In this document: positions 6,448 through 28,367 of the stretch, in pieces
How the letters are laid out: each line of letters opens with the position of its first letter
How positions within the stretch are numbered: position 1 is the first letter of the stretch
Source of the DNA: Alphaproteobacteria bacterium
Lineage (GTDB): Bacteria; Pseudomonadota; Alphaproteobacteria; SMXP01
NCBI GenBank assembly: GCA_004356335.1
Contig: SMXP01000021.1
Coordinates: 1 to 40,322, forward strand
Length of the DNA: 40,322 nucleotides
Direction of reading: 5' to 3'
Made by a program: the position numbers and the translations under genes
The notes under the pieces: generated by a model
The model's database searches: none
Told to the model about the DNA's origin: nothing
Seen by the model: only the letters and a program-made list of their open reading frames with translations

Positions 6448-7218
6448 TTATTCAGCAGCGTAAGGCGGGCTGCTTGTCAAACTGGCTTGATCTCTTTCCG
6501 AAACAAAAAGGCGCTGCACATTGGCCAGGTCTTCCTGCGTGTCCACCTCACCCCAAGTCAGACCTTCAATTGACGCCGCCTGGACGAAACCATCTCTTGC
6601 CATTTTGTCCACAACCATCAGATACCAGGCGTGCACCGCTTCAGGATCTTGCATGGCCTCCGCAATGGCTTGCGCAAAAAGCTGCGGGCCTTCGCCGCGG
6701 AAATACAAAAGGCCAATCGATTCGCCGTCCGTCTCCTCGCGCGACAATTTTTTGCCGACCGCCAAAAGACGCGTCCCATTGAGTTGAACTTTCATATCGT
6801 CATCGTCGTAAGACGACTTGCGATCAATGGTGATCGTGATCGGCGCGAGGGTACTGGAAAGAACACGCCGCGGTATTCTCGGCTCGAATAATGTATCACC
6901 ATTTACCAGTAGAAAATCACTGTCCATTTCATCAATCGCCATCCAACAACTGGCAAGGTTGTCCGATACCTGAAAGAAAGGATTGAAAATTGTCCGGATG
7001 CTGAGATTGGGACTTTGCCAAGGCGCCAAGGTACGCTCAACCGCCTCAGCACCAAACCCCGTGACGACACAAACGTTATTGACGCCGCAGTCATGTAAAA
7101 CCTTTATCTGCCGTTCAAGCATGGTAAGATGGCCGATTGGCAAAAGACACTTTGGTCGGTGTTGAGTCAAAGGAAGAAGTCGTGAACCGCGTCCCGCACT
7201 TAGTATTATAGCTTTCAT
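6448..7218 (-). CDS. LicC/IPCT-like phospho-alcohol cytidylyltransferase (NTP-transferase fold)
   Basis: ORF 6448..7296. The likely start is ATG 7218 (MKAIILSAGRGSRLLPLT..PKCLL), which forms an ATGA overlap with the upstream stop. It has the G-loop LSAGRGSRL, NPFFQVSDNLASCW and WGEVDTQEDL, as in CTP:phosphocholine / inositol-phosphate cytidylyltransferases. Confidence 0.75.
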   Translation of the reverse strand: MKAIILSAGRGSRLLPLTQHRPKCLLPIGHLTMLERQIKVLHDCGVNNVCVVTGFGAEAVERTLAPWQSPNLSIRTIFNPFFQVSDNLASCWMAIDEMDSDFLLVNGDTLFEPRIPRRVLSSTLAPITITIDRKSSYDDDDMKVQLNGTRLLAVGKKLSREETDGESIGLLYFRGEGPQLFAQAIAEAMQDPEAVHAWYLMVVDKMARDGFVQAASIEGLTWGEVDTQEDLANVQRLFVSERDQASLTSSPPYAAE

Positions 7219-7964
7219 TGTACCAGCAACTTCTGAAATGTTTTGTGTTGAAATTCCGAATGAGTCAATTTTTCCGTCCCGGGTGGTATATCCCAATCGA
7301 CCACTTCATATCCGAGTTTCCCAGCCTGCTTTTTAAAGTTTCGGTTCGGGTTCACGGCTATTCCACGGTCTGCCCAAGATAAAAGTGGCACATCCGACTT
7401 ATGATCCGAGTAAGCGATGATCGTACAATCCTCTCGCGACGCCGGCAGCGCCGCCGCGACAGCGCTTAGTTTTTCTTGCCCAAAACAGTTCTCCCCCTCA
7501 ATTGTGCCACAATATCGGTCCGCTTCGTCCCAGCTGGATTTTGTGCAAACGGTCAATGCAAAGCCCAGCCTGGTCGCCAGCGGACATGCCCAAAGGTCCA
7601 TACTGGCTGTCGCCAAAACCAATAGGTGTTTCTGGGATCTATGTTTCTCAATGGCAGGTCTAGTACCCCGGCGCAGGCCTCGTAAAAGCACCCTTTCCAC
7701 AAAAGCGTCAACATAATGGTTAATTTCCTGCCGCGAACGGCCGGCCAAAAACAGGCCGAGCATTCGCTCCTTGAAAGCCTGACGGGCGATCCCCCCCGTC
7801 AAATAGCGTAGTGCCGCTACAATCGCCGGTACCAAGGCCCAGGCTCGAGTAGGATTCTGGCGCAAGACCGAGAGAAGGAATGGCGTAAAGGTGCCGTACT
7901 TCGTCAGCGTTCGATCCAAATCAAACACAGCAACCGTCACCTTGTTATCTATCGTGTTTGCCAT
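7215..7964 (-). CDS. HAD-IB family phosphatase
   Basis: 249 aa. Motif I is VAVFDLDRTLT, followed by a cap region and motif IV-like AYSDHKSDVPLL. This is the HAD subfamily IB (SerB-like) pattern. Confidence 0.8.
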   Translation of the reverse strand: MANTIDNKVTVAVFDLDRTLTKYGTFTPFLLSVLRQNPTRAWALVPAIVAALRYLTGGIARQAFKERMLGLFLAGRSRQEINHYVDAFVERVLLRGLRRGTRPAIEKHRSQKHLLVLATASMDLWACPLATRLGFALTVCTKSSWDEADRYCGTIEGENCFGQEKLSAVAAALPASREDCTIIAYSDHKSDVPLLSWADRGIAVNPNRNFKKQAGKLGYEVVDWDIPPGTEKLTHSEFQHKTFQKLLVQ

Positions 7965-7983: not shown

Positions 7984-9195
7984 TTAAGCCTGCGCTTCCG
8001 CCAACCAGGACGTGATCGAGTGACCTCGAGCCCGCATTACCAATGCCTGAATAAGCCGCACTGCATGGAATATGAACGTAATGACACTCCACACCGCCAG
8101 CATGAGGAACCCGATATCAGGCCGTGCGATCAGGGCCCCGATCATCAATAAGGCCACGTTCGGGTTGCGCCGTGCCGAAAATAGCCGGAACACCGAATCC
8201 ACAGACTGCCACATGTGAATTTGAATGGAGAACGAAAAGACGAATATGCCTTCAATAACACGACAAGCGAGATAGCCCGCCACGATAATCACCATAGCCG
8301 TTTCCAGCCAGGGGCCAAACTGATCGTATTGGGTGGCGCCGAGGCCAATCCACCATGCCACCCACCAAAACGGCGGATGGATATGATCAATGCCATGATC
8401 GTAAATATCGCCCCATTGCGAATAGGTCATCGTAACGCGGGCAAGCTTGCCGTCGACCGTATCCAACAGGGCCATGAGCCAGGCAGTCATAATACCGCTC
8501 ATGAAGTAGCCCTTAGCGAACAGATAGGTTGTCGCAATGACCAAAATGAGACTTCCCGTGGTCACCGTATTCGGTTTGATGCCCCTATTGGCGGCCCACC
8601 GCGTCACCCGCAATGCAGGGATCGGCCAGAACCATTTGGTCACGAAATCGGTTACCCCTTTGTACGATTGGGTGAACATTTTCTTCTCGATGCCGCGCGC
8701 CGACATTTCGTTCAACGAAATCGCATAAGGCACTTCCCGTTTTCGCAGTCCCTTATTGTAGGCAGAACCTAGTTCCGACGGGCATAAAATCCTGAGTCCC
8801 AGAGCCTCTGCCGACGTGTCATCAAACGCACCCTTGGTCACAAGGGCATGTGCTAATTCGAATCGGCGGGCATCCCCCTCGGCTTCAAGATGGATAGCGA
8901 CCACTTTCCGTTGGCCGTTGGCCGTTGGCTCGGTGACCAGAAGTACATTGGGCGATGTGGTTAGATTTCGCACCAGACTGGGATGCAGAACCCATTCGGC
9001 CCCGACCACCAAAACAGCCCTATCGGGCTTGGCTCGTTTGGTGTCGACTTCGGCGCCGGACCGTGAAAAGCCACGCGCCAAATGCTCCTTGGGTGTCAGC
9101 CCCCAAATCCGCTGTTTGCAGTCGCCGACAATGCGTAGTACCGGCTTCGAGTTTCCCTCCACCGCATCCCGCGACTGCGGCTCTTCGACCGTCAA
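7984..9195 (-). CDS. CDP-alcohol phosphatidyltransferase-family membrane protein with N-terminal soluble domain of about 170 aa
   Basis: The signature is complete: DTVDGKLARVTMTYSQWGDIYDHGID fits D-x2-DG-x2-AR-x8-G-x3-D-x3-D. Multiple TM segments follow. TTG start 9195 has GGAGG 10 nt upstream. Confidence 0.85.
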   Translation of the reverse strand: MTVEEPQSRDAVEGNSKPVLRIVGDCKQRIWGLTPKEHLARGFSRSGAEVDTKRAKPDRAVLVVGAEWVLHPSLVRNLTTSPNVLLVTEPTANGQRKVVAIHLEAEGDARRFELAHALVTKGAFDDTSAEALGLRILCPSELGSAYNKGLRKREVPYAISLNEMSARGIEKKMFTQSYKGVTDFVTKWFWPIPALRVTRWAANRGIKPNTVTTGSLILVIATTYLFAKGYFMSGIMTAWLMALLDTVDGKLARVTMTYSQWGDIYDHGIDHIHPPFWWVAWWIGLGATQYDQFGPWLETAMVIIVAGYLACRVIEGIFVFSFSIQIHMWQSVDSVFRLFSARRNPNVALLMIGALIARPDIGFLMLAVWSVITFIFHAVRLIQALVMRARGHSITSWLAEAQA

Positions 9196-9485
9196 TGCCC
9201 TCTTGCCTCCAAATTAAGTCTTCGATTAAACACCGCTTGCCCGCGCTTTGAGGCGGATTTGCGACCATATCGACAAGGTCGATTTCTTGGGGGGTACAAA
9301 TAGCATTATTGAAACTTTCACCAAAGCTTACTACCCCTTGTGAGGTGGCCGGCGCGCCGCGATCCTGGCTGCCGGACTCACCTGGTCGCTAGAGCGAAAT
9401 ATGCTGATGTCTTGCGCTATCCGGGGCTTTCGGGGCATCACACAGGCCACGAATTTTTGTTTGAATCGAAAGGTATTTCAAAACC

Positions 9486-9932
9486 ATGACAAAAAGTGAT
9501 TGGGTCAATGAGACGATTCTCAAGTTCGGATATCCCAAAACCCTTGTCGCCGAATCCACCCATTGGGTGATACTCCTGCGGCCACGTCAAGCGACGTTGG
9601 GCGCCCTGATCCTGGCCCATAAGGGACATGCGACGTCGTGGGGGCAGATTGAGGCGGGCGCCTTCGAAGAGCTCAAGAAAATCACCTCGGGCGTCGAAAA
9701 TGCCCTGTCCAAAGCCGTCGAATTCAAAAAGCTCAATTACCTGATGTTGATGATGGTGGATCCACAGGTTCATTTTCATGTTCTGCCCCGCTACGATCGC
9801 GACCAGACGTTCGCGGATATTGTTTTTCCTGATCCGGGATGGCCCGGCCCGCCGGATCTAGGTTACGCCCCCGATCTTGATCCGGGCGCTTTTGAACGAT
9901 TGCGCCAGCACATACGCAGTCACTGGGCCTAA
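9486..9932 (+). CDS. HIT-superfamily nucleotide hydrolase/transferase-like protein
   Basis: 148 aa. QVHFHVLPRY aligns with the HIT motif HxHxHVLPR. The first His is Gln and the two distal His are kept. Divergent from the CDP-alcohol transferase operon. Confidence 0.6.
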   Translation: MTKSDWVNETILKFGYPKTLVAESTHWVILLRPRQATLGALILAHKGHATSWGQIEAGAFEELKKITSGVENALSKAVEFKKLNYLMLMMVDPQVHFHVLPRYDRDQTFADIVFPDPGWPGPPDLGYAPDLDPGAFERLRQHIRSHWA

Positions 9933-9940
9933 ACGATTAT

Positions 9941-11356
9941 TTAAATTCGCGCCAACAGCCGTGACGCGATAACAAACAACAAAATGGCAGCCACAAGGTT
10001 GCCGATCAAAGCGGCAACGCCAGCGCCGATCAAACCTATTTCCATTAACAACACAATGATGGCGCTGACATGCACAATGCCCGCAACAAGCTTGATATAT
10101 AATGCCAGCTGCGGGCGGCCGATTGCATACAATGTTGGTTCAAAGGCAAACGTCGCCATGGCAACAGACGATGCAAGTGTGAGAATCAACAAGACGCCAT
10201 AAGCGTCGGCGAAGTCGTCACCGAAAAGATAAAAAAGTACCGGTTGGCCGGCAACAAATACAATAACGGTAAAAAGGCTACCGATCAGAAGGCCTAGTTT
10301 GCCCGACTTAAAGACGATCTGTCGCAAATAGGCGCCGCTCTGCGAACCCGCGAGCTTTGCCAATTCCGGGTAGATCGTGCTGTTAAACAACTGGGCCGCT
10401 TTGGTCAGTGCTCCGGCAATCTCCTGGGCCACTTTGAGAAGGGCAGCCCCGGCCGGACCAAGAATGAAACCAACAGACAGAGTCGCGATATACGTACTGG
10501 CCATATTAGCGGTGCCGTGGAAATTGGCCGTCCAAACAAATGGCCATATGCCTTCGTGGGGGGATGCCAATCCACGCAAACGCCAATCCATGCCTTCGGT
10601 CACTTTTTGCCTTTTTAATTCGCGCCACCCGAGACAAACTAAAACCAGCGCGCTCAATGCACCTGCAATAAACCAAACTAAAAGATAGATCTGCCAACTT
10701 GCGCCCATATAACTGGCAATCCCTACACCAATCAATCGCAAGATAGGCACGATCAACGCTTGAAATCCCAACAAATCGAATCGGTTGAACAATCGCAACA
10801 CACCCAAAGGCGTCGATTTGACGTTGATCAGAATGAGCACACAATAAACCGTTGCAAGCGGCACCGCATCGGGCGCAAGACCGAACCTTGGTCCAACATA
10901 TTGAATGGCAATAGCCCCGATAAGAAATCCGATTACCGCACTTGCCACGTCGAGACACAGTGTCAGTTTTAACAATTTCTGAAAGGCGCCGAGATCGTCT
11001 TTATCGAGATAGGCCGCGCCGTAACGAATGAGTGCTTGCCAGGATTTGAAGGAAACGATTTCTCGGACGAACGCCGAATAAGTATGAATTAAGACAATGA
11101 TGCCGAACTGAGCAGCACCCAATGCCTGTGCGGCAAGGGAAAGGTAGGCAACGCCCGCAACAACAGCCACGCCCTTACTACTGACCACAATGCCCGTATT
11201 TTTAAGCACCCGCCGGAACAAATGATCGGGCGACCAGCCATCCGATTGTCGTTGTGTAACATCGGTCGCAGAACCGGACGTGATGGAGCCTTCCGGCGAT
11301 GGGGCGTCGGCGTCGGAGGCCATCCCTTTTTGATTGTCCCGAGTGGTCATTTTCAC
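9941..11356 (-). CDS. MOP/Wzx-type polysaccharide or lipid-linked-substrate flippase
   Basis: 471 aa with at least 12 hydrophobic segments, like proteins annotated as lipopolysaccharide biosynthesis / Polysacc_synt. GTG 11356 overlaps the upstream TGA (GTGA). An alternative ATG lies at 11350. Confidence 0.7.
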   Translation of the reverse strand: MKMTTRDNQKGMASDADAPSPEGSITSGSATDVTQRQSDGWSPDHLFRRVLKNTGIVVSSKGVAVVAGVAYLSLAAQALGAAQFGIIVLIHTYSAFVREIVSFKSWQALIRYGAAYLDKDDLGAFQKLLKLTLCLDVASAVIGFLIGAIAIQYVGPRFGLAPDAVPLATVYCVLILINVKSTPLGVLRLFNRFDLLGFQALIVPILRLIGVGIASYMGASWQIYLLVWFIAGALSALVLVCLGWRELKRQKVTEGMDWRLRGLASPHEGIWPFVWTANFHGTANMASTYIATLSVGFILGPAGAALLKVAQEIAGALTKAAQLFNSTIYPELAKLAGSQSGAYLRQIVFKSGKLGLLIGSLFTVIVFVAGQPVLFYLFGDDFADAYGVLLILTLASSVAMATFAFEPTLYAIGRPQLALYIKLVAGIVHVSAIIVLLMEIGLIGAGVAALIGNLVAAILLFVIASRLLARI

Positions 11357-12162
11357 TGTCGCGCAAGCAAGATTTTTTCCGCTAGTTCCAGATCAGCCAT
11401 TTTATCAACATCGATGGCGGCTTCGGGAAACGGCAGGTTGACGGGCCTTGCCACAAGGCCAAGCCGATTCGAAGCGCGGTCTAACGCCTTAACCAATGTC
11501 GGTCGCCTCAGAAAAAACATTATAATGGTCAATAGACCAAATGCCCAAATTATGCGCCAGGGCCGTTTGCGATGGCGAACCACATCCCGCCAGAATTCCG
11601 CCGCCTTAAGTCCCTTCGCCGTTCGAAAGACGAAAAGATTGCACGAAGAATATTTGTCGTCCTTGAAAGGAAGGTAGGTTCGTTGAGCATCCGGAAATTT
11701 CTCTTGGATCAACCGGCCGGACGTAAAGGCAATCGATAAGTCGGCCGATGCTTTGAGCAACTCTTTACAGAAATAGTCGACAATCTCAACCGTCAGAAGA
11801 GCATTGTCTCCGGTTGTTACCAATAGGGGGAAAGGATCGGAAAGAGAGTGGGCGGCCGTCAAGAGACTATCAGGCGCGCTCCTTGCCGAAGGCATAAATT
11901 CAATGGCACCTTGATCCAGAAAGTCCTGCAACACCGGTATTGCCTCCAAGGCCTCGGCCTGATCCCCAACCACGATTATGCGCCCAATCCGGTGGCTGAC
12001 TTTCAAGGCATCAATAACACGCAGCAAAATTGGTGTCCCCGCTGCCGCCATGTAACACTTGTTATGTTGCCAAACCGACTCAATTGCATCACTCCCGGAA
12101 TGTCGCCCAGCTAAGATGAGCGCAGTAAAGAGTTGAGATTGTGACGCCAATTCCTCTGCCAC
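11353..12162 (-). CDS. MobA-like (NTP_transf_3) nucleotidyltransferase-family protein with C-terminal hydrophobic segment
   Basis: 269 aa. It has LFTALILAGRHSGSDAIE (G-loop-like), ..MAAAGTPILLRVIDAL and LLVTTGDNALL. GTG start 2 nt after the upstream stop. Confidence 0.6.
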   Translation of the reverse strand: MAEELASQSQLFTALILAGRHSGSDAIESVWQHNKCYMAAAGTPILLRVIDALKVSHRIGRIIVVGDQAEALEAIPVLQDFLDQGAIEFMPSARSAPDSLLTAAHSLSDPFPLLVTTGDNALLTVEIVDYFCKELLKASADLSIAFTSGRLIQEKFPDAQRTYLPFKDDKYSSCNLFVFRTAKGLKAAEFWRDVVRHRKRPWRIIWAFGLLTIIMFFLRRPTLVKALDRASNRLGLVARPVNLPFPEAAIDVDKMADLELAEKILLARQ

Positions 12163-12164
12163 TG

Positions 12165-13367
12165 TTAAAGTGCCTTCTCGTACATGCGATAAACTTTATA
12201 GGGGCGTCCGCCAATTGCCTCAATCATATTGCGCATGGCCGTATTGTCTTCGAGTATCCATGACATCTCACTTTTCTTGATTCCCCTTTCCAGGTGGCTC
12301 GCGTAAATATTCTCTATCGTTCCGTAAGCAAAAACGGCACCAAGCGGTGTCGCTTGAAATTCCTTACGAACCCCCATCAAGGGCACTCGGACGGTGCTCA
12401 CCCGGTTCAATTTCAGGCGATAAAGCAAGCGCGCCCAGCCAAACGGAAAAAGCCTGCCGTCAAGATCACGTATCGCCTCATTGAGATTGGGCAATGCCAT
12501 AGCAAAGGCGACCGGCCTGCCTTCAAATTCAGCAAAGCAGACCGAATGGGAATTAATGAGAGGCCGCACCTCTTTGGCAAGGTGCCGAATTTCTTTTTCC
12601 GTGAAAGGCAGGAATCCCCAATTCTCCGACCACGCATCGTTAAAGATATCAGCGATAATGGCCATTTCTCGTTCATAGGCGCTCCAATTGAGCGGACGCA
12701 ACGTGATTTTCGGATCGTGTTTTCCGCGATCCACCAATCGGCTAACCGACGGCGGAATGCCGCCTTCGCTCAATGTGATCAAATAAGCGATTAGATCCTT
12801 CGCCTTTTGGTAGCCGCATTGCTCCAGCATGCTCCCATAATAGGGCCTCGCATGTCCCATCATGAGCATAGGCGGGTCATCAAACCCCTCTACAAGCACA
12901 CCGCATTCGTCATTGACCGAAAAATTGAAAGGTCCAAGGCTGCGGCGCATATTGCGCGAGCGCAGCCATTCCTCCGCCGCCGCAAGCAACGCCTCGAAGA
13001 CATCTTTCGAGTTAACCGCCTCCAAAAAGCCGATATGTCCCGTATGGGCATCGTGTTTTTCTAGAAAGCGGCGGTCAATCTGCGCACTCAGCCGGCCCAC
13101 GACTTCCCCGTCTTGCAACGCCAACCACAGCTGAACCTCTGCTTGGTCAAAGTAAGGATTATGTTTTGAACTTAAATGACGCAAGCGCTCGACAAGCAGC
13201 GGTGGAACCCACGCCGGGTCATCGGCGTATATCTTCCACGGCAGGCGGATGAAAGTTTTTAGATCTTTACGGGTCCTAACCGGAACGATGTGGATTGCGG
13301 AAACCCCATTCGCATCTGGAGACGGAGTGGCCTCGCGCGTTATCGAAGACGGCTCAAATGTCGGCAT
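12165..13367 (-). CDS. large (about 400 aa) GNAT-fold N-acyltransferase; candidate bacterial ceramide synthase (tentative)
   Basis: ORF 12165..13427. The likely start is ATG 13367 (MPTFEPSS), sharing 1 nt with the upstream TGA (TGATG). Motifs FIRLPWKIYADDPAWVPPLL, GRLSAQIDRRF, GFLEAV and GPFNFSVNDECGVLVEGFD belong to a family often mislabelled dATP pyrophosphohydrolase. Confidence 0.55.
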   Translation of the reverse strand: MPTFEPSSITREATPSPDANGVSAIHIVPVRTRKDLKTFIRLPWKIYADDPAWVPPLLVERLRHLSSKHNPYFDQAEVQLWLALQDGEVVGRLSAQIDRRFLEKHDAHTGHIGFLEAVNSKDVFEALLAAAEEWLRSRNMRRSLGPFNFSVNDECGVLVEGFDDPPMLMMGHARPYYGSMLEQCGYQKAKDLIAYLITLSEGGIPPSVSRLVDRGKHDPKITLRPLNWSAYEREMAIIADIFNDAWSENWGFLPFTEKEIRHLAKEVRPLINSHSVCFAEFEGRPVAFAMALPNLNEAIRDLDGRLFPFGWARLLYRLKLNRVSTVRVPLMGVRKEFQATPLGAVFAYGTIENIYASHLERGIKKSEMSWILEDNTAMRNMIEAIGGRPYKVYRMYEKAL

Positions 13368-14137
13368 CAATTCTTGGCAGCAACGATCGGGGCTGTCTCG
13401 GAACCCGTGGACAATTGTGCCACCCAAGGATATCGCTTGGCTTCGCTGTCCGTGTAACCCAAATTTCGCGCGGTTGGGCTACGCGGCACCGAACTGTTGC
13501 TGTCATAATAGGACGAGAAAAACCTGTCCCACAAATAGTTGGTAATGCCGTAATTGCCCGTCTCATTGTGAAAGTGGTGAGCCATATGCAATTGCTTGAT
13601 TCGCTCGAGAAAAGCGCTCTTTGGCGCATATCCCAGATGTTGACTGCAATGACAAAACTCATAAAAGCAAGTGACCAGGATGCCTGCCGCAAGTCCAATT
13701 GCCGCCCCCGACAAACCGCCAATAAGCCCGCCCATGGGCGCGGTCACGACCACAACCGTCGGCAGCGTGGTATGCAGACCGCCGAACAGCACCGCCATAT
13801 CGTTCGGATTCTGATGATGATCGAAATGTATCCGCTTCCAAAGCGCTGCCGTCATCTCCGATTTATAAAGCCAGCGACCGTGCAGAAGGAAACGGTGAAG
13901 AACATACCAAACAAGAGGATAAACCAAAATGACAACCACCACGACAATCGCCAAATCAGCCAATCGACCGAGCGAATAAACCGCCAAAATACACAGCGCG
14001 AAAAACAACATGAGATAGACTTGAATTCCTGGATAGGTGAAATAGGCCTTGACCAGGTCATTTAGAGACATCTTGTCCAGAAGATATTTCTGACTCTTCC
14101 AGGTCTTGTAACTCATAAACACGAGAGTCGCTCCCAA
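13367..14137 (-). CDS. fatty-acid hydroxylase / sterol-desaturase-superfamily membrane di-iron enzyme
   Basis: His boxes HRFLLH, HFDHHQNP and HMAHHFHNE, with an N-terminal TM pair. First gene of a four-gene overlapping operon. Confidence 0.8.
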   Translation of the reverse strand: MGATLVFMSYKTWKSQKYLLDKMSLNDLVKAYFTYPGIQVYLMLFFALCILAVYSLGRLADLAIVVVVVILVYPLVWYVLHRFLLHGRWLYKSEMTAALWKRIHFDHHQNPNDMAVLFGGLHTTLPTVVVVTAPMGGLIGGLSGAAIGLAAGILVTCFYEFCHCSQHLGYAPKSAFLERIKQLHMAHHFHNETGNYGITNYLWDRFFSSYYDSNSSVPRSPTARNLGYTDSEAKRYPWVAQLSTGSETAPIVAAKN

Positions 14138-14307
14138 GTTGACGTCCTAAGATATGCGGCTTTGTGGCCCGAAAATAGACGGTAAAACGTCGCATTCGAG
14201 GGCCGACTGCCCGGGGATTCGGGCCGGCACGCCCATTTCTGCGTACCCGGCCCTATTTGAATCAATTCGGCGGACAATTGCAACCGATCGACCAAAACCC
14301 GCAAAAG

Positions 14308-14346
14308 CTAGAGTGTTTCCAAGAAAACCGGGTTCGTTCATCCTAG
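14308..14346. repeat. Mosaic hairpin repeat locus R5 (truncated B1-like module)
   Basis: ctagagtgtttccaagaaaaccgggttcgttcatcctag shares its first 25 nt or so with module B and R4. Confidence 0.6.
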
Positions 14347-14351
14347 CCGCT

Positions 14352-14948
14352 TTATTTTTTTGACGGCCAATTTTTCAACACAATCTCCACATCGGCGCCG
14401 TTTTCACCGACTTCGAAGGACAGGTCGCTAAATTTCGGTACCCTTAATCGTATTCGCGGATTGTTCGACAAGCCGAACGGCTCCTTGGGAAAACCCAACC
14501 AATTCTTGTCGAATTTTCTATTCCCGTTGATGTCGTGATAAACCGCAATGGCATAAGTGCCATATGTTTCCACCGGAACACATAAACGGACCTGGTCAAA
14601 CGCTGCCGACACCCGCGTGCGCGAGATTTTCATACCTTTCTTGAGGATATGATCCGGGTTGTCGGCAAGAAGGTCCACCACAATCGACCCGCTCGCCGTC
14701 CTTACATCTTGCACCGTAACCAATATATGAGATGCTAATTGGGCGCAGCCGGCGACACCGAGGCTTTGTGAAGGCACGGCTGAAACCACAACGCCCAAGA
14801 CCACAATGAGCGCTGCCAGCGGCCAATATAGAGCAGGCCGAAGAAAAGATATTACAGCCGGTAAATAAAAAGTGACCGGCGATAAACGAGAATTATTGTG
14901 GATTGAAGGGTCCAACCCACTGAAATTGAGCAAATCTCTCAATATCAT
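14352..14948 (-). CDS. DUF2141-like exported/anchored protein
   Basis: ORF 14352..14987. The start is uncertain (GTG 14987, ATG 14963 or ATG 14948). It has a TM/signal segment PLAALIVVLGVVVSAV and a C-terminal YAIAVYHDINGNRKFDKNWLGFPKEPFGLSNN, which I recognise as the DUF2141 signature. Confidence 0.6.
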   Translation of the reverse strand: MILRDLLNFSGLDPSIHNNSRLSPVTFYLPAVISFLRPALYWPLAALIVVLGVVVSAVPSQSLGVAGCAQLASHILVTVQDVRTASGSIVVDLLADNPDHILKKGMKISRTRVSAAFDQVRLCVPVETYGTYAIAVYHDINGNRKFDKNWLGFPKEPFGLSNNPRIRLRVPKFSDLSFEVGENGADVEIVLKNWPSKK

Positions 14949-15000
14949 GCCCCCCTGAAGCATATGAAACAGCAAACATTTACCCACTTAGCCCAACTAT

Positions 15001-15021: not shown

Positions 15022-15076
15022 GCCGGGTCAAGATTACGATGCCCTCTGTTGAGTTCACGAAAATGCGGCGAACGAA

Positions 15077-16291
15077 ATGAGTTTGGTCAACCGATACATA
15101 TTGCGACAACTAATTGTCTATTCGGCAACGATCATGTTGATTGCCTTGGCCGCGCTGTTGCTCGAACGCATGCTTAGGTTGCTCGATCTGACGGTAAATT
15201 CAGATGGTATGATCGGTTATGTCTCGCAAATGCTACTGAATCTAATTCCGCATTATTTGGGAATCGCAATACCGACGACATTCTTTCTCGCAGTGCTTTT
15301 GACAGTGAGCCGCATGAGCCGCAACAGCGAGCTCACGGCGCTCAATGCAGCCGGCGTCGGACTGTTGAGATTGATGTATCCCATTATGGCGACAGCAATT
15401 TTACTAACGGCAATCACCGCAATATTACTCTCCGTCATTCAACCCTACAGCCGCTACACTCATCGATCGCTGGTTCACGACGTTAGCTACCGCTCTCTTG
15501 ACACGGCACTCAAGGAAGGTGCCTTCGTACATGCCGGCGACATGACTTTCATGGCGGAGGGCCGGTCAACAATGGGCGACATATTGACGAATGTCTTCGT
15601 GTTTAAGCGCAACGATGACGGAAGCTCTACTGTTACGACAGCACCCAAAGGTCTATTGCTAAAGGACGCCCCTGAGCTCGGTATGTCCCTCGGCCTTGAA
15701 AATGGCGTCCGCATTGATTTCACCAAACAAGGGAGTTTTGACCGCCGCTTGAGTTTTGAGTCGTTTTTGTGGCCGGTTAATATCGGCACTTTGGGGCCGT
15801 TCCGTGCCCGAGGTCGTGACGAACGCGAGCTGACCCTCACGGAACTTTGGCAGTATCGAAATTCCGCGCCAGAAAAAATCGGTAAAAATAAAATCGTTTC
15901 GGAGTTTCACGTGCGACTCGTGAAGATTCTGTCGATATTAATCTTGCCCCTCATGGCTGTGCCTTTGGGGCTCAATAATAGCCGCACCAGTCAATCCTGG
16001 GGTGTGGCACTCGGGGTACTCGTACTCATTGTCTACCAAAAAGTCATCGAGCTCGGCAGTGCGTTATCGGGGGTCGGCGCAGCATCTCCTTTGGTTAGCA
16101 TGTGGCTACCGTTTCTGTTGTTTTTAGTGGTCGGAGCGGGACTTTTTTATCACGTGAGTCGGCGCGTCACCGCCGACCCGACAGACTGGCTCGCACACCA
16201 ATTTGGTGGATTTGCGTCATGGGTGCAGGGATTTTTCGATCGCGCAAAAGATGGGGCGACCGTTGCTAGACGGCCGCAACAAACTAGATGA
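15077..16291 (+). CDS. lptF: LptF-type LPS export permease (YjgP/YjgQ family)
   Basis: 404 aa. The N-terminus NRYILRQL.. is typical of LptF/LptG. There are six hydrophobic segments with a large periplasmic insert between TM3 and TM4. Confidence 0.8.
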   Translation: MSLVNRYILRQLIVYSATIMLIALAALLLERMLRLLDLTVNSDGMIGYVSQMLLNLIPHYLGIAIPTTFFLAVLLTVSRMSRNSELTALNAAGVGLLRLMYPIMATAILLTAITAILLSVIQPYSRYTHRSLVHDVSYRSLDTALKEGAFVHAGDMTFMAEGRSTMGDILTNVFVFKRNDDGSSTVTTAPKGLLLKDAPELGMSLGLENGVRIDFTKQGSFDRRLSFESFLWPVNIGTLGPFRARGRDERELTLTELWQYRNSAPEKIGKNKIVSEFHVRLVKILSILILPLMAVPLGLNNSRTSQSWGVALGVLVLIVYQKVIELGSALSGVGAASPLVSMWLPFLLFLVVGAGLFYHVSRRVTADPTDWLAHQFGGFASWVQGFFDRAKDGATVARRPQQTR

Positions 16292-17355
16292 CGTCTACCT
16301 TACATCGATATCTCACCAAGTTATTTTTCTCGCGCTTGGTGCTATTGCTGGTCGGTATCAATTTTCTTGTCGTCATTCTGGATTTTATGGCCAATGGCGA
16401 CGATGTGATCAGCTCGAACTCGACACCGCTTTTGTCATCCTTTCGCTATATGGGGCTGCGCCTGCCTCAAATTGCGTCAACACTCATGCCGTTTGTATTG
16501 CTTATTGCGGTTCTCCTTACATTGATGGAACTGGTCCGGCATCAAGAAATGGCGGCGATGATGTCGGCCGGCATGTCACAGCTTAAAGTCATGTTGACCC
16601 TGCTGCCCGCGGGCATGATCGTCGCGGTTTTACAATTTGCCATTAATGACCAATTGGAGCCGAGAGCTATAAAGGAACTAAAGAATTGGGGAGTCGGAGA
16701 ATACAAAGTTGATAAGGGGGAGGAGATCGATGCAATTTGGTTTCACCATCAAAGTGACATAATTCGCGTGGGCCGCGTCGAACGCGGTGATCTACTTCAC
16801 GACATTACTATTTTCCGGCGTGGTCAAGACGGAAACATAGTCGAGCGCATTCATGCGAATAGGCTGGTTCACGAAAATGGGACTTGGATTCTGAGTGACG
16901 TCAGCCGTTCGACCATTACTCGCCGCGAGCCGGAACAACTCGACCATCTTGAATGGCAGAGCAATCTGCAGCCCCATCTTGTGGCATCGCTTGCATCTCA
17001 TCCCAAGGATCTATCCGTTTTTGAGATCAGACGATTTTGGCAAGAGGCAAGGTTTGGCAGCTTTCCCAATCATGTTTATGAAGTGTGGATGCACCGGAAA
17101 ATTGTTGCGCCCCTCGTCCTTTTTGTCATGGTTCTAATGTCTGTTCCGCTTGTCCAGCGCTACCAACGTGATACAAATTTAGTTTCGATATTAGTATTCG
17201 GATTGGCTGCGGGTTTTTTCTTCATTGTCTTTGACGATCTTTTGATGACATTTGGCGAGGCGGGGCTCATCCCGCCCATATTGGCTGCTTGGGCGGCAAC
17301 TCTGATCTTCGCCGCAATCGGCGCGACATTGGCCTTGCACCACGAGTCACTCTGA
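16288..17355 (+). CDS. lptG: LptG-type LPS export permease (YjgP/YjgQ family)
   Basis: 355 aa with the same architecture (LHRYLTKLFFSRLVLLL..). ATGA overlap with lptF at 16288-16291. Confidence 0.8.
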   Translation: MTSTLHRYLTKLFFSRLVLLLVGINFLVVILDFMANGDDVISSNSTPLLSSFRYMGLRLPQIASTLMPFVLLIAVLLTLMELVRHQEMAAMMSAGMSQLKVMLTLLPAGMIVAVLQFAINDQLEPRAIKELKNWGVGEYKVDKGEEIDAIWFHHQSDIIRVGRVERGDLLHDITIFRRGQDGNIVERIHANRLVHENGTWILSDVSRSTITRREPEQLDHLEWQSNLQPHLVASLASHPKDLSVFEIRRFWQEARFGSFPNHVYEVWMHRKIVAPLVLFVMVLMSVPLVQRYQRDTNLVSILVFGLAAGFFFIVFDDLLMTFGEAGLIPPILAAWAATLIFAAIGATLALHHESL

Positions 17356-17357
17356 AC

Positions 17358-18332
17358 ATGAACACGCCCGCCGTAAAAGTAGGCCTCATATCAAATCCCT
17401 TAAGTCAAAGAAATAAGAAGCGCCGGGGTAAGCTTAACGACATCGTTAGTTCACACGCCGATATATTATACGAGCCCCTTGAGGAGATCGCCGCTTTGGC
17501 AGAGATTCTCAAAAAGTTTTCGGCCCGTGAGGTCGGGCTGATTGTGCTGGATGGCGGCGATGGCACGGTTCAAGCGGCTTTGACCGAATTACTAAACGGC
17601 AACGCTTACGACACACCGCCATTGCTGTGTGTCTTGCCAAGCGGTATGACCAACTTAATTGCCGGCGATGTCAGCGGCAAAGGAACACCGGAAATGGGTT
17701 TCTCTCGAGTGATAGAGAGAGCGCGCAACGAATCCTTCGATCAATGGATCGTTGAGCGCCATGTCATTCGCGTGCAATATGCACCAGACCTGTCACCCAT
17801 TTACGGCATGTTTTTTGGCATGGGCGCGGTGACACGGGCGATCGAACAATGTCGTCGCGTCATTCACCCCCTGCGAATTGAAGGACCCGGCGCGGTAGGC
17901 CTTACCTTGGCCGGCCTGCTCATACGCAGATCGATCAGAGGGAACCGCGACGATACTGTGTTTCGCGGCGACAATATCACGCTTCAATTTAATGACGGTA
18001 AGGCGATCCCGATACATAACCTGCTGGTTTTGATCTCGACTTTGAAGCGACTTGCGCTTGGAACGCGGCCCTTTTGGGGAGAAGGCAATGGCGGTCTCCA
18101 AGTTACAAGCATCGCCTATCCGCCCACTCGATTTTGGCGCTCACTTTTCCCCCTGCTATATGGCAAGGAAAGGCGCAACCTTGATTCCGAGATTTATTTG
18201 AGCCAAAGAACCGATCATCTCGCCATCACAATGAACAGCCCGTTCACATTGGACGGTGAGATGTTCCAGCCTTCACCGGACATTCCCGTCAGATTAGAGG
18301 CTGCCGGTCCGGTTCGGTTTATCCGCTGGTGA
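17358..18332 (+). CDS. diacylglycerol-kinase-fold lipid kinase (candidate ceramide/sphingoid kinase)
   Basis: ORF 17289..18332. The likely start is ATG 17358 (MNTPAVKVGLISNPLS), 2 nt after the lptG stop. It has the DAGK_cat signature LIVLDGGDGTVQAAL and LPSGMTNL. Confidence 0.75.
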   Translation: MNTPAVKVGLISNPLSQRNKKRRGKLNDIVSSHADILYEPLEEIAALAEILKKFSAREVGLIVLDGGDGTVQAALTELLNGNAYDTPPLLCVLPSGMTNLIAGDVSGKGTPEMGFSRVIERARNESFDQWIVERHVIRVQYAPDLSPIYGMFFGMGAVTRAIEQCRRVIHPLRIEGPGAVGLTLAGLLIRRSIRGNRDDTVFRGDNITLQFNDGKAIPIHNLLVLISTLKRLALGTRPFWGEGNGGLQVTSIAYPPTRFWRSLFPLLYGKERRNLDSEIYLSQRTDHLAITMNSPFTLDGEMFQPSPDIPVRLEAAGPVRFIRW

Positions 18333-18336
18333 CGCC

Positions 18337-19284
18337 ATGTCAATGGAACAAACGCTTGCTCAAATTATTCGACGGGAGATTTATCAGCCGGTACCGCAAG
18401 CGGTGCAAACAGCCGCACAGGGCGTTCGCGATCGACATGGTGATGGTGTCGCGGCAATTCTTTTCTACGGCTCTTGCCTTAGAGACCAATCGGTTGAAGG
18501 CAAAGTGATTGATTTTTACGTACTCGTGGAGCACTACCATAACATCCACAAGAGCTGGATCATGAGCACGGCAAATGCCCTGCTTCCGCCCAACGTCTAC
18601 TATCTAGAGGTCCCCGATGATGGAGGCACGGTCCGCATCAAATACGCCGTTTATACGTTAAACGCATTTAACAGGGGGGCATCCCAACGCACCATACAGT
18701 CGACAATATGGGCACGATTCGCGCAACCCTGTATTCTGCTATACGCGCGCAGTGATGCGGTCGAGGGGCGGATTGTTTCGGCATTGGTCAAGTCCATCAC
18801 GACGTTGATGAAACTAACCACACCTCTCATGGCCACAACATTCACCTCGAAAGAATTATGGGTGCGCGCTTTTCAAGAAAGCTATAGATCGGAATTGCGC
18901 GCGGAACGTTCGGATCGCCCCGCCCAACTCTATGATCATTTTGAAATGCGTTACGAAAAGCTGAGCAAACTTTGTTTGATCGGCGCCGAACAACAAGAAA
19001 GTCAACCTCAAACGCCCACACGCTACCGAAATTCAAGCGGCAAATGGGCTAGAGCCCTCACCCAAACGAGATGTGTGGTGCGGCGGTTCTACGGCAAGTT
19101 TCTCACAATATTGCGCCTTGTGAAGGCGGCATTTACGTTTGATGGCGGACTCGACTACATCCTTTGGAAGATTGAAACCCATTCGGCCGTGCGGGTAAGA
19201 CCGACGCCCTGGCAAGAGCGGCACCCGGTGCTGGCGGCACCGATCTTGGCATGGCGGTTATACCGGCAAGGGGCTTTTCGCTGA
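18337..19284 (+). CDS. Tam41/Mmp37-like nucleotidyltransferase (phosphatidate cytidylyltransferase-like)
   Basis: 315 aa, starting 4 nt after the kinase stop. AAILFYGSCLRD, VIDFYVLVEHY, PPNVYYLEV, IKYAVYTLNAF and IWARFAQPCILLY follow the Tam41 pattern as I remember it (GYGSGVF.Q, DFI..V, GVYFN, KYGV.., AGR.QKPV). Confidence 0.55.
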   Translation: MSMEQTLAQIIRREIYQPVPQAVQTAAQGVRDRHGDGVAAILFYGSCLRDQSVEGKVIDFYVLVEHYHNIHKSWIMSTANALLPPNVYYLEVPDDGGTVRIKYAVYTLNAFNRGASQRTIQSTIWARFAQPCILLYARSDAVEGRIVSALVKSITTLMKLTTPLMATTFTSKELWVRAFQESYRSELRAERSDRPAQLYDHFEMRYEKLSKLCLIGAEQQESQPQTPTRYRNSSGKWARALTQTRCVVRRFYGKFLTILRLVKAAFTFDGGLDYILWKIETHSAVRVRPTPWQERHPVLAAPILAWRLYRQGAFR

Positions 19285-20493
19285 GGCGTCAGAAGATGTC
19301 GGCATGGCATCTCGCCGCATTTCGGCCAAGCGTGAGAAAATCTCTCCAATTTCCTCAATCTCCTCAACGCTGTGAGCGGCTGAAACGCTCAATCGAAGAA
19401 GTGAGGTGGCGTTAGGCGTACCGGGCGGAATAGCCAGATTTACGTAAACGCCTGCTTGAATGAGCCAGTTCCAACACGTCACAGCGTCTTCACGGCTTGG
19501 CATCTTGACCGCAATAATGGGTCCCTTGTCGGCGCAAAGCTCAAACCCTAGTTGATGCAACCGATCGTAAAGCCGTGATGAATTGCGCCAAAGTGTTTGA
19601 CGCAGTTCGGGACGCTTCTCGATCTGATGTACCGCTTCGAGCACCGATGCCACATTGGCCGGCGACATCGACGCGGTGAACATATAAGGCCGGCTGACGC
19701 AACGCAGAAGCTCAAATTCCGGGTGATTGGATGCGGCAAAACCACCTACCGATCCCAGGCTCTTGCTAAAAGTGCCTACATAAAAATCGATTTTATCAAG
19801 CACGCCCTGATCTTCTGAAACGCCGCGACCCTTATCACCAAACACTCCATAAGAATGTGCTTCATCGACAAAAAGATAAGCGTCATGTTCATGGGTAATC
19901 TTTTCGATCTCGGCGACGGGCGCCACATCACCGAACATGCTGTACATCCCTTCAACAATGACCAGCACATTACCGCCGTCTTGGCCCAAGCGGGTTAAGC
20001 GTTTATCCAAATCTTCCGGAGAGTTGTGGCGAAATCGGATGGTCTCGGCGTCGCTCAATTTGCAACCGTCATAAATCGAAGCATGGCAATCGGCATCAAT
20101 TAGAATCGTATCTCCCTGTCCTGTGAGACCCGATATAACGCCGAGATTGGCTTGATAACCGGTTGAAAACACAATCGTGTATTGATAGCCGAGAAACTTT
20201 GCCAGCGCCTGCTCCAGCGCTTTGTGATTCGCATAGGTACCATTGGCGAAACGAGAACCCGTGGTACCGGTTCCTTGCTTCGCCATGGCTTCTTGGCCAG
20301 CGCGCACACATTCCGGGTCGAAGGTGAGGCCGAGATAATTATTGGTGCCCGCTAACAACACCTCACGCCCGTCGATCAACGCTCGAGTAGGCGACAATAT
20401 CTCCGCCATACAGACACTGAACGGATCATCTCCGACCTCTAGGATAGAGTTATACAGATCCGATAATGGTCCAAACTTATCAAAAATACTCAT
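19258..20493 (-). CDS. spt: serine palmitoyltransferase (alpha-oxoamine synthase family)
   Basis: 411 aa. Long collinear similarity to Sphingomonas paucimobilis SPT as I remember it: GTNNYLGLTFDP, GTGTTGSRFANGT, VFSTGYQANLG, DADCHASIYDG, IRFRHNS.EDLDKRL, VDEAHS, and GTFSKSLGSVGG with the PLP lysine. Confidence 0.9.
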   Translation of the reverse strand: MSIFDKFGPLSDLYNSILEVGDDPFSVCMAEILSPTRALIDGREVLLAGTNNYLGLTFDPECVRAGQEAMAKQGTGTTGSRFANGTYANHKALEQALAKFLGYQYTIVFSTGYQANLGVISGLTGQGDTILIDADCHASIYDGCKLSDAETIRFRHNSPEDLDKRLTRLGQDGGNVLVIVEGMYSMFGDVAPVAEIEKITHEHDAYLFVDEAHSYGVFGDKGRGVSEDQGVLDKIDFYVGTFSKSLGSVGGFAASNHPEFELLRCVSRPYMFTASMSPANVASVLEAVHQIEKRPELRQTLWRNSSRLYDRLHQLGFELCADKGPIIAVKMPSREDAVTCWNWLIQAGVYVNLAIPPGTPNATSLLRLSVSAAHSVEEIEEIGEIFSRLAEMRRDAMPTSSDASAKSPLPV

Positions 20494-20497
20494 GGCC

Positions 20498-20752
20498 TTA
20501 TTTTTCGCTCACAAGCTTTTGAACAGACTTAACCAGATCGCCCACAGTCCGCAGTTCAGACATTAAATTCATGGGGAAGGATATATCGTAACTATCCTCC
20601 AACTCCATGATCAAATCTAAGATAGCCACGGAATCGATCTCCAATTCCGTTGCAATATCGGTGTCTTTCGTCAATTCAATGTTATTGACATTGAAGACTT
20701 TCAGCAATGCACAAGTCTTTTGAAAGACCAAATCGTGATCTTCCTGTGGCAT
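20498..20752 (-). CDS. dedicated acyl carrier protein
   Basis: ORF 20498..20875. I prefer ATG 20752 (MPQEDHDLV..) or 20770, because the upstream 35 codons are repeat-derived (the same peptide appears in ORF 39862..40206). Phosphopantetheine site ELEIDSVAILDL. The stop is 4 nt before the spt ATG. Confidence 0.85.
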   Translation of the reverse strand: MPQEDHDLVFQKTCALLKVFNVNNIELTKDTDIATELEIDSVAILDLIMELEDSYDISFPMNLMSELRTVGDLVKSVQKLVSEK

Positions 20753-20802
20753 CTTTTCTCTATCCTTCATCTTTTGGTTCTCATTCGGATATACGCTATC
20801 AA

Positions 20803-20947
20803 CTAGAGCACGTTCACAAAAGATGGAATCACTAACGTGCTCTAGGTCTTTGTTTTGTCGCGCATTCGAACCCAAAAACCGCGTACACTTTTTGTGAATG
20901 CGCTCTAGACCACGTTCTTCGATTCTATGAATTGTGAACGTGGTCTA
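20803..20947. repeat. Mosaic hairpin repeat locus R6 (modules C + A + D)
   Basis: C: ctagagcacgttcacaaaagatggaatcactaacgtgctctag (20803-20845). Linker gtctttgttttgtc. A: 20860-20908. D: ctagaccacgttcttcgattctatgaattgtgaacgtggtcta (20905-20947). It is intercistronic between the acyl ligase and the ACP. Confidence 0.9.
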
Positions 20948-20994
20948 TTGTAATATATCCATCCGGCCGGCTTATAGCAGCTTGTTATGATTTC

Positions 20995-22761
20995 TCACTC
21001 TGCCAAGACAGACAAGCCTTCGGCGGATTCATTGGATCGGTCCTCAAAGGCACCGGCAAGGAATCTAGCTTTTACCTTAGCCCGGCTCAGCTTGCCGGAC
21101 GATGTCATGGTCAGACTGCGCAGCGGTGCCAAAACGATCTTGCTCGTCACACCCGCTGTTGCATGGATCGTTGTTTTGATCCGACGCAATAATTGCTGGC
21201 GCGCTTCATCGCCCTTAACACGGCACTCGACCACCGTCACAACCGATTCCGTCCCATCGGACTTCTCAACTGAAAAAGCCGCCACACCGCCGCTACGTAT
21301 TTCGGGCAGGCGTTCTATGGCCCACTCAATATCGTGAGGCCAAATATTGCGTCCGTTGACGATGATCAAATCTTTGCTGCGACCTGTGACGACAAGCTCC
21401 CCGTCGATCAGGTAGCCCATGTCACCCGTATCCATCCAGCCGTCATCCGTTAAAACCCGTTGCGATGCTTCTTTGTCCTGAAAATAGCCGGCCATAAGGC
21501 TTGGACCACTGATAAAAATGTCGCCAACCTCACGATCCGCCACAAGGGATCCATCGCTGCGTCTGATTTCAAGTCCGTGTCCCGGCATGGGCTTACCGCA
21601 AATGACGAATGTGCGTCTCTTATCCGCGTTACCGTTTAATTTTATGGGTTTAGCGATACCCGAATTGGCATAGACCTGCATATCAATGGTATCTCTCGCG
21701 AAGTCCTCATCGACATCGGCAAAGGTCATGGCGAGCGTTGCTTCCGCAAGGCCATAGCTGGGTACAAATGTCGAGCGTCGATACCCCACGGGCTCGAACG
21801 TCGAGATAAACGTATCAAGCACGTCGGCACGAATCATGTCGCCGCCAATGCCCGCAACGCGCCAAGACGACAAATCGATCCCGTCCAAGGAACCATTCTT
21901 TGCCCGCCGGCAACACAATTCGTATCCGAACGACGGGCTGAACGCCATGGTTGCTTTGTTGTCCGAGATAATCTTGAGCCAGAGCAACGGACGGCGCGCG
22001 AAGTCTGCAGTAGCAATATAATCGACGCTCACCTGCATCATGAGCGGCCCCAGCGCAAACCCCACAAGACCCATATCATGGTAAAGCGGTAGCCAGGAAA
22101 TCGTACGATCTCCTTGCCGACATTTCAGGCCGTGTCGAAGAATGGCGGTGATATTACTTGTCGTGGATTTTTGCGTCGCCGTGACGCCTTTGGGTGAGCT
22201 CGTGCTGCCCGAGGAATATTGAATGTAGCAAGGCTCATCGGGGCCGAGCGGTTGAAGCTCCACCTCGGCTTTGGTCATTTGATCGAAATCGCTATACGTA
22301 CCTATCAAGAGGCCAGGTTGTGATTTCCCGGCTTCCTTAAGAAGTTCGATGAGATGATCGGACGTTACAGCGGCGCAGGCACCAGCCTTGGCCATCATAA
22401 TGCGAATCTGTTCGATATAGGCTTCCTTACCACCCAAATTAATCGGCAACAGAAGCGGTACCGGCAGCAAGCCCGCATATTGGCAGGCAAAGAAGAAAAC
22501 GTGAAATTGCGGGATCGTCTCGGCCAGGATGGCCACCCGACCATGGCGAGGAAAACCCGCCGCAACAAGACGCAATGCCAGTTCTTTGGCCCGGACGCGC
22601 AGCTCCGTATAGGAAATTTGAGCGATCACTTCACCCCGAACAGAATAAAAGTTCAAGCCGGTCTCGCCGCGCGCCGCGTATTCAAGTCCTTCTACGAGTG
22701 TATCGAAACCACTTACCTTGAAGGGCAGTTTCTCGTTTATTGTTGGTGTCGGATTAGGCAT
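20995..22761 (-). CDS. fatty acyl-AMP ligase / acyl-ACP synthetase (ANL superfamily)
   Basis: 588 aa. AMP-binding motifs YIQYSSGSTSSPKGV, WLPLYHDMGL, YGLAEATL and GWMDTGDMGY are present, and the FAAL-like length matches. It is adjacent to the ACP and spt, as in described bacterial sphingolipid loci. Confidence 0.85.
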   Translation of the reverse strand: MPNPTPTINEKLPFKVSGFDTLVEGLEYAARGETGLNFYSVRGEVIAQISYTELRVRAKELALRLVAAGFPRHGRVAILAETIPQFHVFFFACQYAGLLPVPLLLPINLGGKEAYIEQIRIMMAKAGACAAVTSDHLIELLKEAGKSQPGLLIGTYSDFDQMTKAEVELQPLGPDEPCYIQYSSGSTSSPKGVTATQKSTTSNITAILRHGLKCRQGDRTISWLPLYHDMGLVGFALGPLMMQVSVDYIATADFARRPLLWLKIISDNKATMAFSPSFGYELCCRRAKNGSLDGIDLSSWRVAGIGGDMIRADVLDTFISTFEPVGYRRSTFVPSYGLAEATLAMTFADVDEDFARDTIDMQVYANSGIAKPIKLNGNADKRRTFVICGKPMPGHGLEIRRSDGSLVADREVGDIFISGPSLMAGYFQDKEASQRVLTDDGWMDTGDMGYLIDGELVVTGRSKDLIIVNGRNIWPHDIEWAIERLPEIRSGGVAAFSVEKSDGTESVVTVVECRVKGDEARQQLLRRIKTTIHATAGVTSKIVLAPLRSLTMTSSGKLSRAKVKARFLAGAFEDRSNESAEGLSVLAE

Positions 22762-28348: not shown

Positions 28349-28367
28349 TTACGGGAACAATGCAAAG

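Follow-up and report, generated by a model that had tools for sequence, protein, structure and literature searches.

The complete 40,322-nt public metagenome contig SMXP01000021.1 of an uncultured marine-sediment alphaproteobacterium (this whole stretch is called the window) carries four adjoining minus-strand genes at 9941-14137, encoding a di-iron membrane hydroxylase, a tandem-GNAT N-acyltransferase, a MobA-like nucleotidyltransferase and a Wzx-like transporter. Very likely, they form the module that makes ceramide and primes it for export within a Caulobacter-type cluster for an anionic phosphosphingolipid, either ceramide phosphoglycerate (CPG) or ceramide diphosphoglycerate (CPG2). How bacteria synthesise sphingolipids was elucidated only between 2021 and 2026, almost entirely in Caulobacter, and the window appears to hold the same pathway with informative rearrangements. 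The system is already known; the extra value of the locus is modest and consists of comparative evidence on the flippase and hydroxylase steps.

The four-gene block and its putative ceramide synthase

Species-representative genomes were scanned with a GNAT alignment, and the best 80 loci were compared (45-55% identity, none from Caulobacter). Most were alphaproteobacterial (Kiloniellaceae, Geminicoccaceae and other Rhodospirillales), some beta-, gamma- or deltaproteobacterial, and the window proteins were mapped onto them by tblastn and family hidden Markov models. The gene spt lay no more than 10 kb from the GNAT homologue in 45/80 loci, as against 6 kb in the window. The first-pass annotation had read the block as serving sphingolipid synthesis and export, with the GNAT as a ceramide synthase of the bacterial type (bCerS), and had held that a block common in genomes without spt would point elsewhere; spt or another gene of the sphingolipid cluster was present in 69/80 loci. 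The hydroxylase gene was immediately upstream of the GNAT gene in 34 loci, and the MobA-like gene immediately downstream in 55. The conserved core is hydroxylase-bCerS-nucleotidyltransferase, the position of the flippase gene varies among loci, and the architecture nearest to the window (L004) is without a flippase.

The GNAT matched PF00583 over its N-terminal half only (34 bits), and its AlphaFold model (predicted local distance difference test score, pLDDT, 84) has a tandem-GNAT fold like MshD and glucosamine N-acetyltransferases; no sequence match was found in the PDB. The protein has no hydrophobic or transmembrane (TM) segment, and Caulobacter bCerS has been reported as a peripheral protein without TM regions. 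Its family is large, with more than 7000 database clusters, and the few public names in it read 'dATP pyrophosphohydrolase'; the occurrence of this label, suspected earlier, was confirmed in public sources. Among the NCBIfam models, none covers the hydroxylase, the GNAT or the flippase.

The sphingolipid/CPG2 cluster of Caulobacter crescentus comprises CC_1152-CC_1168 (CCNA_01210-01226), in which CC_1154 is bCerS, CC_1152 is CpgD (a LicC-like CTP:phosphoglycerate cytidylyltransferase), CC_1155 is LptG2, CC_1156 LptF2 and CC_1157 a HIT protein, and CC_1159, CC_1160 and CC_1161 are CpgA, CpgB and CpgC. The window GNAT is 49-50% identical to the proteins that fill the Neut_1100 slot in three related loci (L065, L068 and L080), and Neut_1100 was reported to match CC_1154 with 41% identity (E 5e-105, 100% coverage). 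Locus L080 has the order GNAT, MobA-like, LptF, LptG, CDP-alcohol transferase, diacylglycerol-kinase-like and CpgC-like; gene for gene this is the order of Neut_1100-1106 in N. eutropha, assigned in the published work to CC_1154, CC_1153, CC_1156, CC_1155, CC_1159, CC_1160 and CC_1161. Nitrosomonas communis (L065) has the same run minus the MobA-like gene. Because of this two-step chain (L080/Neut_1100/CC_1154) and the linkage statistics, the GNAT is called a putative bCerS orthologue; very probably it is a bacterial ceramide synthase, which would N-acylate 3-ketosphinganine or sphinganine. The linkage and the Nitrosomonas-type slot both support the role first proposed for it, and the proposal withstood the refuting condition that came with it.

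The four open reading frames (ORFs), read from 14137 to 9941, have 256, 400 (from ATG), 269 and 471 codons, and direct reading of the sequence bore out the genes and junctions as first annotated. The hydroxylase stop (TGA 13369-13367) and the GNAT start (ATG 13367-13365) share one base as TGATG; the GNAT stop (TAA 12167-12165) is followed by CA at 12164-12163 and then by GTG at 12162; and the nucleotidyltransferase stop (TGA 11355-11353) overlaps the flippase start (GTG 11356-11354) as GTGA. With stop and start codons that overlap or nearly touch, the four products are probably coupled in translation. At the GNAT-nucleotidyltransferase junction, a 4-nt overlap was found in 20 of the 36 related loci with a measurable junction, and this recurrence argues that the tight coupling is not due to chance. 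Other starts are available: the flippase could begin at the in-frame ATG 11350 (469 aa), the form of most database copies, by which the overlap becomes a 2-nt gap; ATG 14116 may apply to the hydroxylase instead of TTG 14137; and in one NCBI model the GNAT has 376 aa, with its start moved 24 codons downstream to a non-canonical ATC. ATG 13367 is the sole canonical start that precedes the conserved region. With any of these alternatives, the four genes remain tightly packed. Promoter and terminator scans of the block stayed at background level and placed no boundary inside it. Nucleotide composition is uniform across the window, and sequence near-identical to it is present in marine sediment and subsurface metagenomes.

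Several points weigh against a ceramide module. The bCerS orthology is drawn indirectly, by the two-step chain and synteny. The exact four-gene order of the window was found in 0/80 loci; six long loci had no other sphingolipid gene within 10 kb, and one homologue of the hydroxylase (L085) had no sphingolipid neighbours. The gene cerR (PF01370), found between the acyl carrier protein (ACP) and acyl-ACP synthetase genes in 29/80 related loci, was absent from that interval (20498-22761) and from the rest of the 40-kb window, where tblastn with 29 CerR-like proteins gave one chance-level match only; it may be located elsewhere in the genome. Two runs labelled metatranscriptomic that contain the region had flat depth equal to that of DNA runs, so that contigs spanning the gene junctions are no sign of co-transcription. 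Finally, the regiochemistry of the hydroxylase, the substrate of the nucleotidyltransferase and the cargo of the flippase are all inferred.

In an alternative reading, the block serves another acylated envelope lipid or polymer (ornithine lipid or another aminolipid, lipopolysaccharide (LPS) or capsule) and lies near spt by chance; the GNAT would then N-acylate an aminolipid, the hydroxylase would resemble OlsE and the Wzx-like protein would flip a polysaccharide. PF04116, the family of the hydroxylase, also covers enzymes that hydroxylate aminolipids and sterols, undecaprenyl-linked sugars are the usual cargo of PF01943 proteins, the public names of the flippase homologues read 'O-antigen/teichoic acid export membrane protein', and a few GNAT loci are without a sphingolipid neighbour. 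However, linkage with spt and with genes for ACP, synthetase, ceramide kinase-like protein and LptF2/G2 recurs systematically in several classes of proteobacteria, the flippase family occurs inside aas-cerR-acp-spt operons, and the block in the window includes no glycosyltransferase or polymerase genes. Both the chance proximity and the roles that go with it are considered highly improbable, and the ceramide module is the reading followed below.

Nucleotide activation and the head group

The nucleotidyltransferase scored 31.7 bits against PF12804 (cutoff 27) and matched PDB entry 2dpw with E 9e-13; the sole match to its C-terminal half was the uncharacterised Thermus protein TTHA0179, and its scores against the MobA and IspD equivalog models were far under cutoff. 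Locus L080 reproduces the Neut_1100/1101 pair (GNAT and MobA-like), and Neut_1101 has been reported as the orthologue of CC_1153. The latter, which is MobA/CofC-like and directly adjoins bCerS in Caulobacter, is required for conversion of CPG to CPG2. By homology and linkage, the MobA-like gene of the window is the predicted counterpart of CC_1153.

Three nucleotidyltransferase folds (LicC-like, MobA-like and Tam41-like) had been regarded at first as unusual for a lipid locus. They are instead the known make-up of the Caulobacter CPG2 cluster, in which CpgD is LicC-like, CC_1153 is MobA/CofC-like and CpgC is Tam41-like, and for this reason the three folds are taken as a cluster signature. All five head-group gene types (CpgB, CpgC, CpgA, CpgD and CC_1153) are present in the window, and their order is syntenic with N. 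eutropha. The CDP-alcohol phosphotransferase fills the Neut_1104 slot in L065, L068 and L080, and the CpgB-like/CpgC-like pair is conserved in 44-48 loci; no Pfam match was found for the CpgC-like protein of 315 aa. The LicC-like cytidylyltransferase had LicC (1jyk, E 1e-12) as its best match among the PDB entries searched, which did not include the reported CpgD crystal structures. Together with the CDP-alcohol transferase and HAD-IB phosphatase genes, its gene forms a second minus-strand operon at 9195-6448. A calcineurin-like metallophosphoesterase like CC_1158 was found in 31/80 loci, and tblastn gave no match to it in the window; the HAD-IB phosphatase looks like a non-orthologous replacement, in L004 too. 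The stop codon of the HAD-IB phosphatase gene and the probable start of the gene that follows, ATG 7218, seem to share bases in the sequence ATGA.

The HAD phosphatase in place of the usual metallophosphoesterase also fits a sphingolipid whose head group is not phosphoglycerate. Such a route would be akin to the pathways of inositol-phosphate lipids: CDP-inositol or another CDP-alcohol would come from the LicC-like enzyme, the CDP-alcohol transferase would transfer the head group from it and the HAD phosphatase would remove a phosphate from the end, and the substrate of the MobA-like enzyme would differ from that in Caulobacter. The best NCBIfam similarities of the CDP-alcohol transferase are to phosphatidylinositol-phosphate synthases (E 6e-12), and the LicC-like enzyme matched an inositol-1-phosphate cytidylyltransferase/DIPP synthase model (E 2.7e-18); these inositol-type scores, however, are far under the family cutoffs. 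Furthermore, the CDP-alcohol transferase and LicC-like genes are 34-54% identical to those that standard clusters have at the CpgA and CpgD positions, and the window contains the ceramide kinase-like and CpgC-like genes that typify the CPG route but no inositol-phosphate synthase. A head group of another kind is thus judged unlikely, and a phosphoglycerate head group of the CPG type is preferred.

Candidate hydroxylase and flippase

The hydroxylase consists of the hydroxylase domain only (PF04116, E 2.4e-20) and has three hydrophobic segments. It was first described with three His boxes; the count is four histidine clusters (H81-H86, H104-H108, H163-H167 and H184-H190), whose motifs H81xxxxH86, H104xxHH108, H163xxxH167 and H184xxHH188 align with yeast Scs7, a 2-hydroxylase of the ceramide acyl chain and the sole solved structure matched by the sequence (E 2.4e-13 over 152 residues). 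Three homologues were chosen solely for their long contigs, and spt clusters adjoin two of them, in metagenome-assembled genomes (MAGs) of Nitrospinales and Parvularculaceae. Most likely, as judged from similarity and linkage, the enzyme would add a hydroxyl group to the sphingolipid at C2 of the N-acyl chain. Bacterial sphingolipids commonly have 2-hydroxy acyl chains, and for myxobacteria FA2H-like fatty acid 2-hydroxylases are described (Ring et al. 2009, as cited in PMC10002949). Alternatively, the enzyme may act on the long-chain base, either as a Sur2-like C4-hydroxylase that gives phytoceramide or as a desaturase. Sur2-type C4-hydroxylases and desaturases belong to the same PF04116 family and have the same His motifs. 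The match to Scs7 as the only solved structure, the myxobacterial acyl 2-hydroxylases, the frequency of 2-hydroxy acyl chains and the hydroxylation in Caulobacter, which falls on the acyl chain, speak against long-chain-base action, which we hold to be less probable. The FA2H-like gene is a candidate for sphingolipid hydroxylation in lineages without the DesA-type enzyme of Caulobacter.

The flippase candidate itself had no Pfam match even at E <= 5; PF01943 was matched by 36/43 of its homologues, including those at 43-52% identity. It has at least nine strongly hydrophobic segments, and its AlphaFold model (pLDDT 88) is all-helical, with TM-scores of 0.70-0.73 to MurJ and WzxE; the family profile matched WzxE weakly (E 0.003). 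The family is rarer, with 43 database clusters, yet its members are consistently located within sphingolipid loci: directly after spt in aas-cerR-acp-spt operons (L081 and L082), directly before bCerS (L053 and L073), divergent from the hydroxylase (L008, L024 and L025) or after the nucleotidyltransferase, as in the window (L074). In 18 other loci, the same two slots, after spt or before bCerS, are held by an MsbA-like ABC exporter. The ABC exporter was recorded in L012, L035, L037, L038, L045, L048, L055, L063, L066, L071 and L077-L079, and the Wzx-like MOP protein in these slots in L008, L053, L073, L081 and L082; the two transporters co-occur in 0/31 loci.

According to the literature on Caulobacter, a sphingolipid flippase has yet to be identified, and CC_1166, a PF01943-type protein, is listed there only as a candidate. 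We infer that the MOP/Wzx-like protein flips a ceramide-based lipid. Its tie to bCerS and its alternation with the ABC exporter in the same slots would give two concrete flippase candidates. A wider proposal is possible but tentative: that the MOP protein is the flippase so far missing for sphingolipids at the inner membrane of Gram-negative bacteria, that an MsbA-like ABC exporter is its non-orthologous substitute in other lineages, and that the FA2H/Scs7-like enzyme joined to the bCerS operon is the ceramide alpha-hydroxylase of many marine alphaproteobacteria, all three together. If true, the window would hold a self-contained acylate-hydroxylate-activate-flip module, transferable to Caulobacter or E. 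coli. As a separate observation, the Nitrospinales MAG has at 8835-15537 of its locus (L083) a compact operon that adjoins the hydroxylase homologue and comprises spt, a 374-aa protein without Pfam match, an epimerase-type reductase, a CDP-alcohol transferase and an MMPL transporter; the MMPL protein could be yet another export solution.

In the pathway that we propose, Spt with the dedicated ACP and the acyl-ACP synthetase (19258-22761) would form 3-ketosphinganine, and the soluble tandem-GNAT bCerS, for which the orthology evidence is strong, would N-acylate it at the cytoplasmic face. The di-iron FA2H/Scs7-like enzyme would then hydroxylate the product, and the nearby ceramide kinase-like, CpgC-like, CpgD-like and CpgA-like enzymes would supply the head group. 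The MobA/CofC-like nucleotidyltransferase would carry out the further activation, dependent on a nucleoside triphosphate, that published genetics found necessary in Caulobacter for CPG to become CPG2. Either an intermediate or the finished anionic lipid would be flipped across the inner membrane by the MOP/Wzx-like transporter, after which LptF2/LptG2 would presumably extract the lipid towards the outer membrane.

Neighbouring genes and comparison with known systems

The four genes and the remaining genes of the predicted lipid cluster are listed in Table 1.

Table 1. Coordinates of the four-gene block and of the other lipid-cluster genes in the window
Feature	Coordinates	Strand	Basis and remarks
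LicC-like cytidylyltransferase, CpgD-like (CC_1152)	6448..7296	-	PF00483, PF12804; probable start ATG 7218
HAD-IB phosphatase	7215..7964	-	PF12710, TIGR01490; between CpgA-like and CpgD-like genes
CDP-alcohol phosphotransferase, CpgA-like (CC_1159)	7984..9195	-	PF01066
HIT-like protein, CC_1157-like, 148 aa	9486..9932	+	Weak PF01230, E 0.001; convergent with flippase gene
MOP-superfamily Wzx-like transporter (469-471 aa), candidate sphingolipid flippase, CC_1166-like	9941..11356	-	PF01943 in homologues, AlphaFold
MobA/CofC-like nucleotidyltransferase, predicted CC_1153/CCNA_01211 counterpart	11353..12162	-	PF12804, position
Tandem-GNAT N-acyltransferase, probable bCerS (CC_1154/CCNA_01212 family)	12165..13367	-	PF00583, fold, linkage
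FA2H/Scs7-like di-iron membrane hydroxylase (~249-256 aa)	13367..14137	-	PF04116, Scs7 match
DUF2141 protein, N-terminal hydrophobic segment	14352..14987	-	PF09912, E 2e-28
LptF2/LptG2 pair, sphingolipid-specific paralogues of LPS extractor	15077..17355	+	PF03739, E 5e-69 and 3e-65
Ceramide kinase-like protein (CpgB, DAGK_cat), then CpgC-like 315-aa protein	17289..19284	+	PF00781
Spt, then dedicated ACP, then acyl-ACP synthetase (AasR-like)	19258..22761	-	PF00155, PF00550, PF00501

The DUF2141 gene is 214 bp upstream of the hydroxylase gene on the same strand, and it may be co-transcribed with the four-gene block: no promoter-like or terminator-like sites were found in the gap at 14138-14351, so the transcription unit may extend to this gene. 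A DUF2141 protein recurs in 15/80 loci and adjoins spt in the Parvularculaceae MAG (L084, 2641-3153); the gene list of the Caulobacter cluster does not include it. The HIT-like protein is 44-56% identical in 19-20 loci, usually encoded just upstream of LptF2; its ORF at 9486-9932 had been considered as LptC2 and was rejected as HIT-like, and a 113-aa ORF at 9438-9779 is its antisense shadow. LptF2/LptG2 were co-located in more than 50 of the 80 loci. No LptC-like protein was found among the window ORFs scanned, which did not include every small ORF.

Outside these genes, a palindromic intergenic element resembling repetitive extragenic palindromic sequences or miniature inverted-repeat transposable elements (REP/MITE-like), with the core TTTTGTGAATGCGCTCTAG, has 11 half-sites in the window against 0.01 expected. 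They are located at 2052, 6343, 20803/20890, 23332, 34370, 35952/36038, 39984/40071 and 40219, and several form inverted pairs ~90 bp apart. At two copies the depth of metagenome contigs is 30-150 times that of the flanks, which indicates a high copy number of the element in the community; most of the lipid cluster lies between two of its copies (~6.3 kb and ~20.8 kb). Beside the cluster, 23498-30910 holds a phosphate-uptake cluster with an O/P porin, a PstS-like binding protein, two permeases and two ATPases, and the gene at 26318-27403 combines a PhoU domain with a low-molecular-weight phosphatase domain in one fusion. At 31050-34248, three consecutive genes encode a putative ATP-dependent zinc protease (PF05618), a seven-transmembrane protein with an inactive transglutaminase domain (PF14400/PF14402) and a sugar-transfer-associated ATP-grasp protein (PF14397).

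Like yeast Scs7 and mammalian FA2H, the window hydroxylase is a di-iron enzyme of the membrane and shares all four histidine motifs, whereas it has only ~250 aa and lacks the N-terminal cytochrome b5 domain. The nucleotidyltransferase shares the PF12804 fold with CofC, MobA and CobY, and differs from them in its low MobA/IspD scores and in a C-terminal half that resembles TTHA0179 only. The known substrates of CofC are small 2- or 3-phospho acids, chemically near phosphoglycerate. The transporter resembles WzxE (lipid III) and MurJ (lipid II), with a TM-score of 0.79 when normalised to WzxE; it is only 13-17% identical to them, and its context suggests a ceramide-based cargo and not an undecaprenyl-pyrophosphate-linked one. 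The window locus does not overturn current understanding, and its main value is support for the sphingolipid flippase candidate.

Compared with Caulobacter, the window couples an FA2H/Scs7-like hydroxylase upstream of bCerS, whereas acyl chains in Caulobacter are hydroxylated by the unlinked DesA-family enzyme CC_0202. The flippase gene of the window follows the nucleotidyltransferase gene in the bCerS operon, whereas that of Caulobacter is beside the synthetase gene, and a HAD-IB phosphatase stands in place of the calcineurin-like CC_1158. The window has in addition a DUF2141 gene, and cerR and LptC2 were not found in it, with small ORFs partly scanned. The gene families in common are Spt, the dedicated ACP, the acyl-ACP synthetase and bCerS directly followed by a MobA/CofC-like gene on the side of synthesis, and an LptF/LptG pair, ceramide kinase-like, CpgC-like, CDP-alcohol transferase, LicC-like and HIT genes and a PF01943-type candidate flippase besides. 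By homology and linkage, the region at ~6.4-22.8 kb is a Caulobacter-type CPG2 cluster, whose product would be CPG or CPG2.

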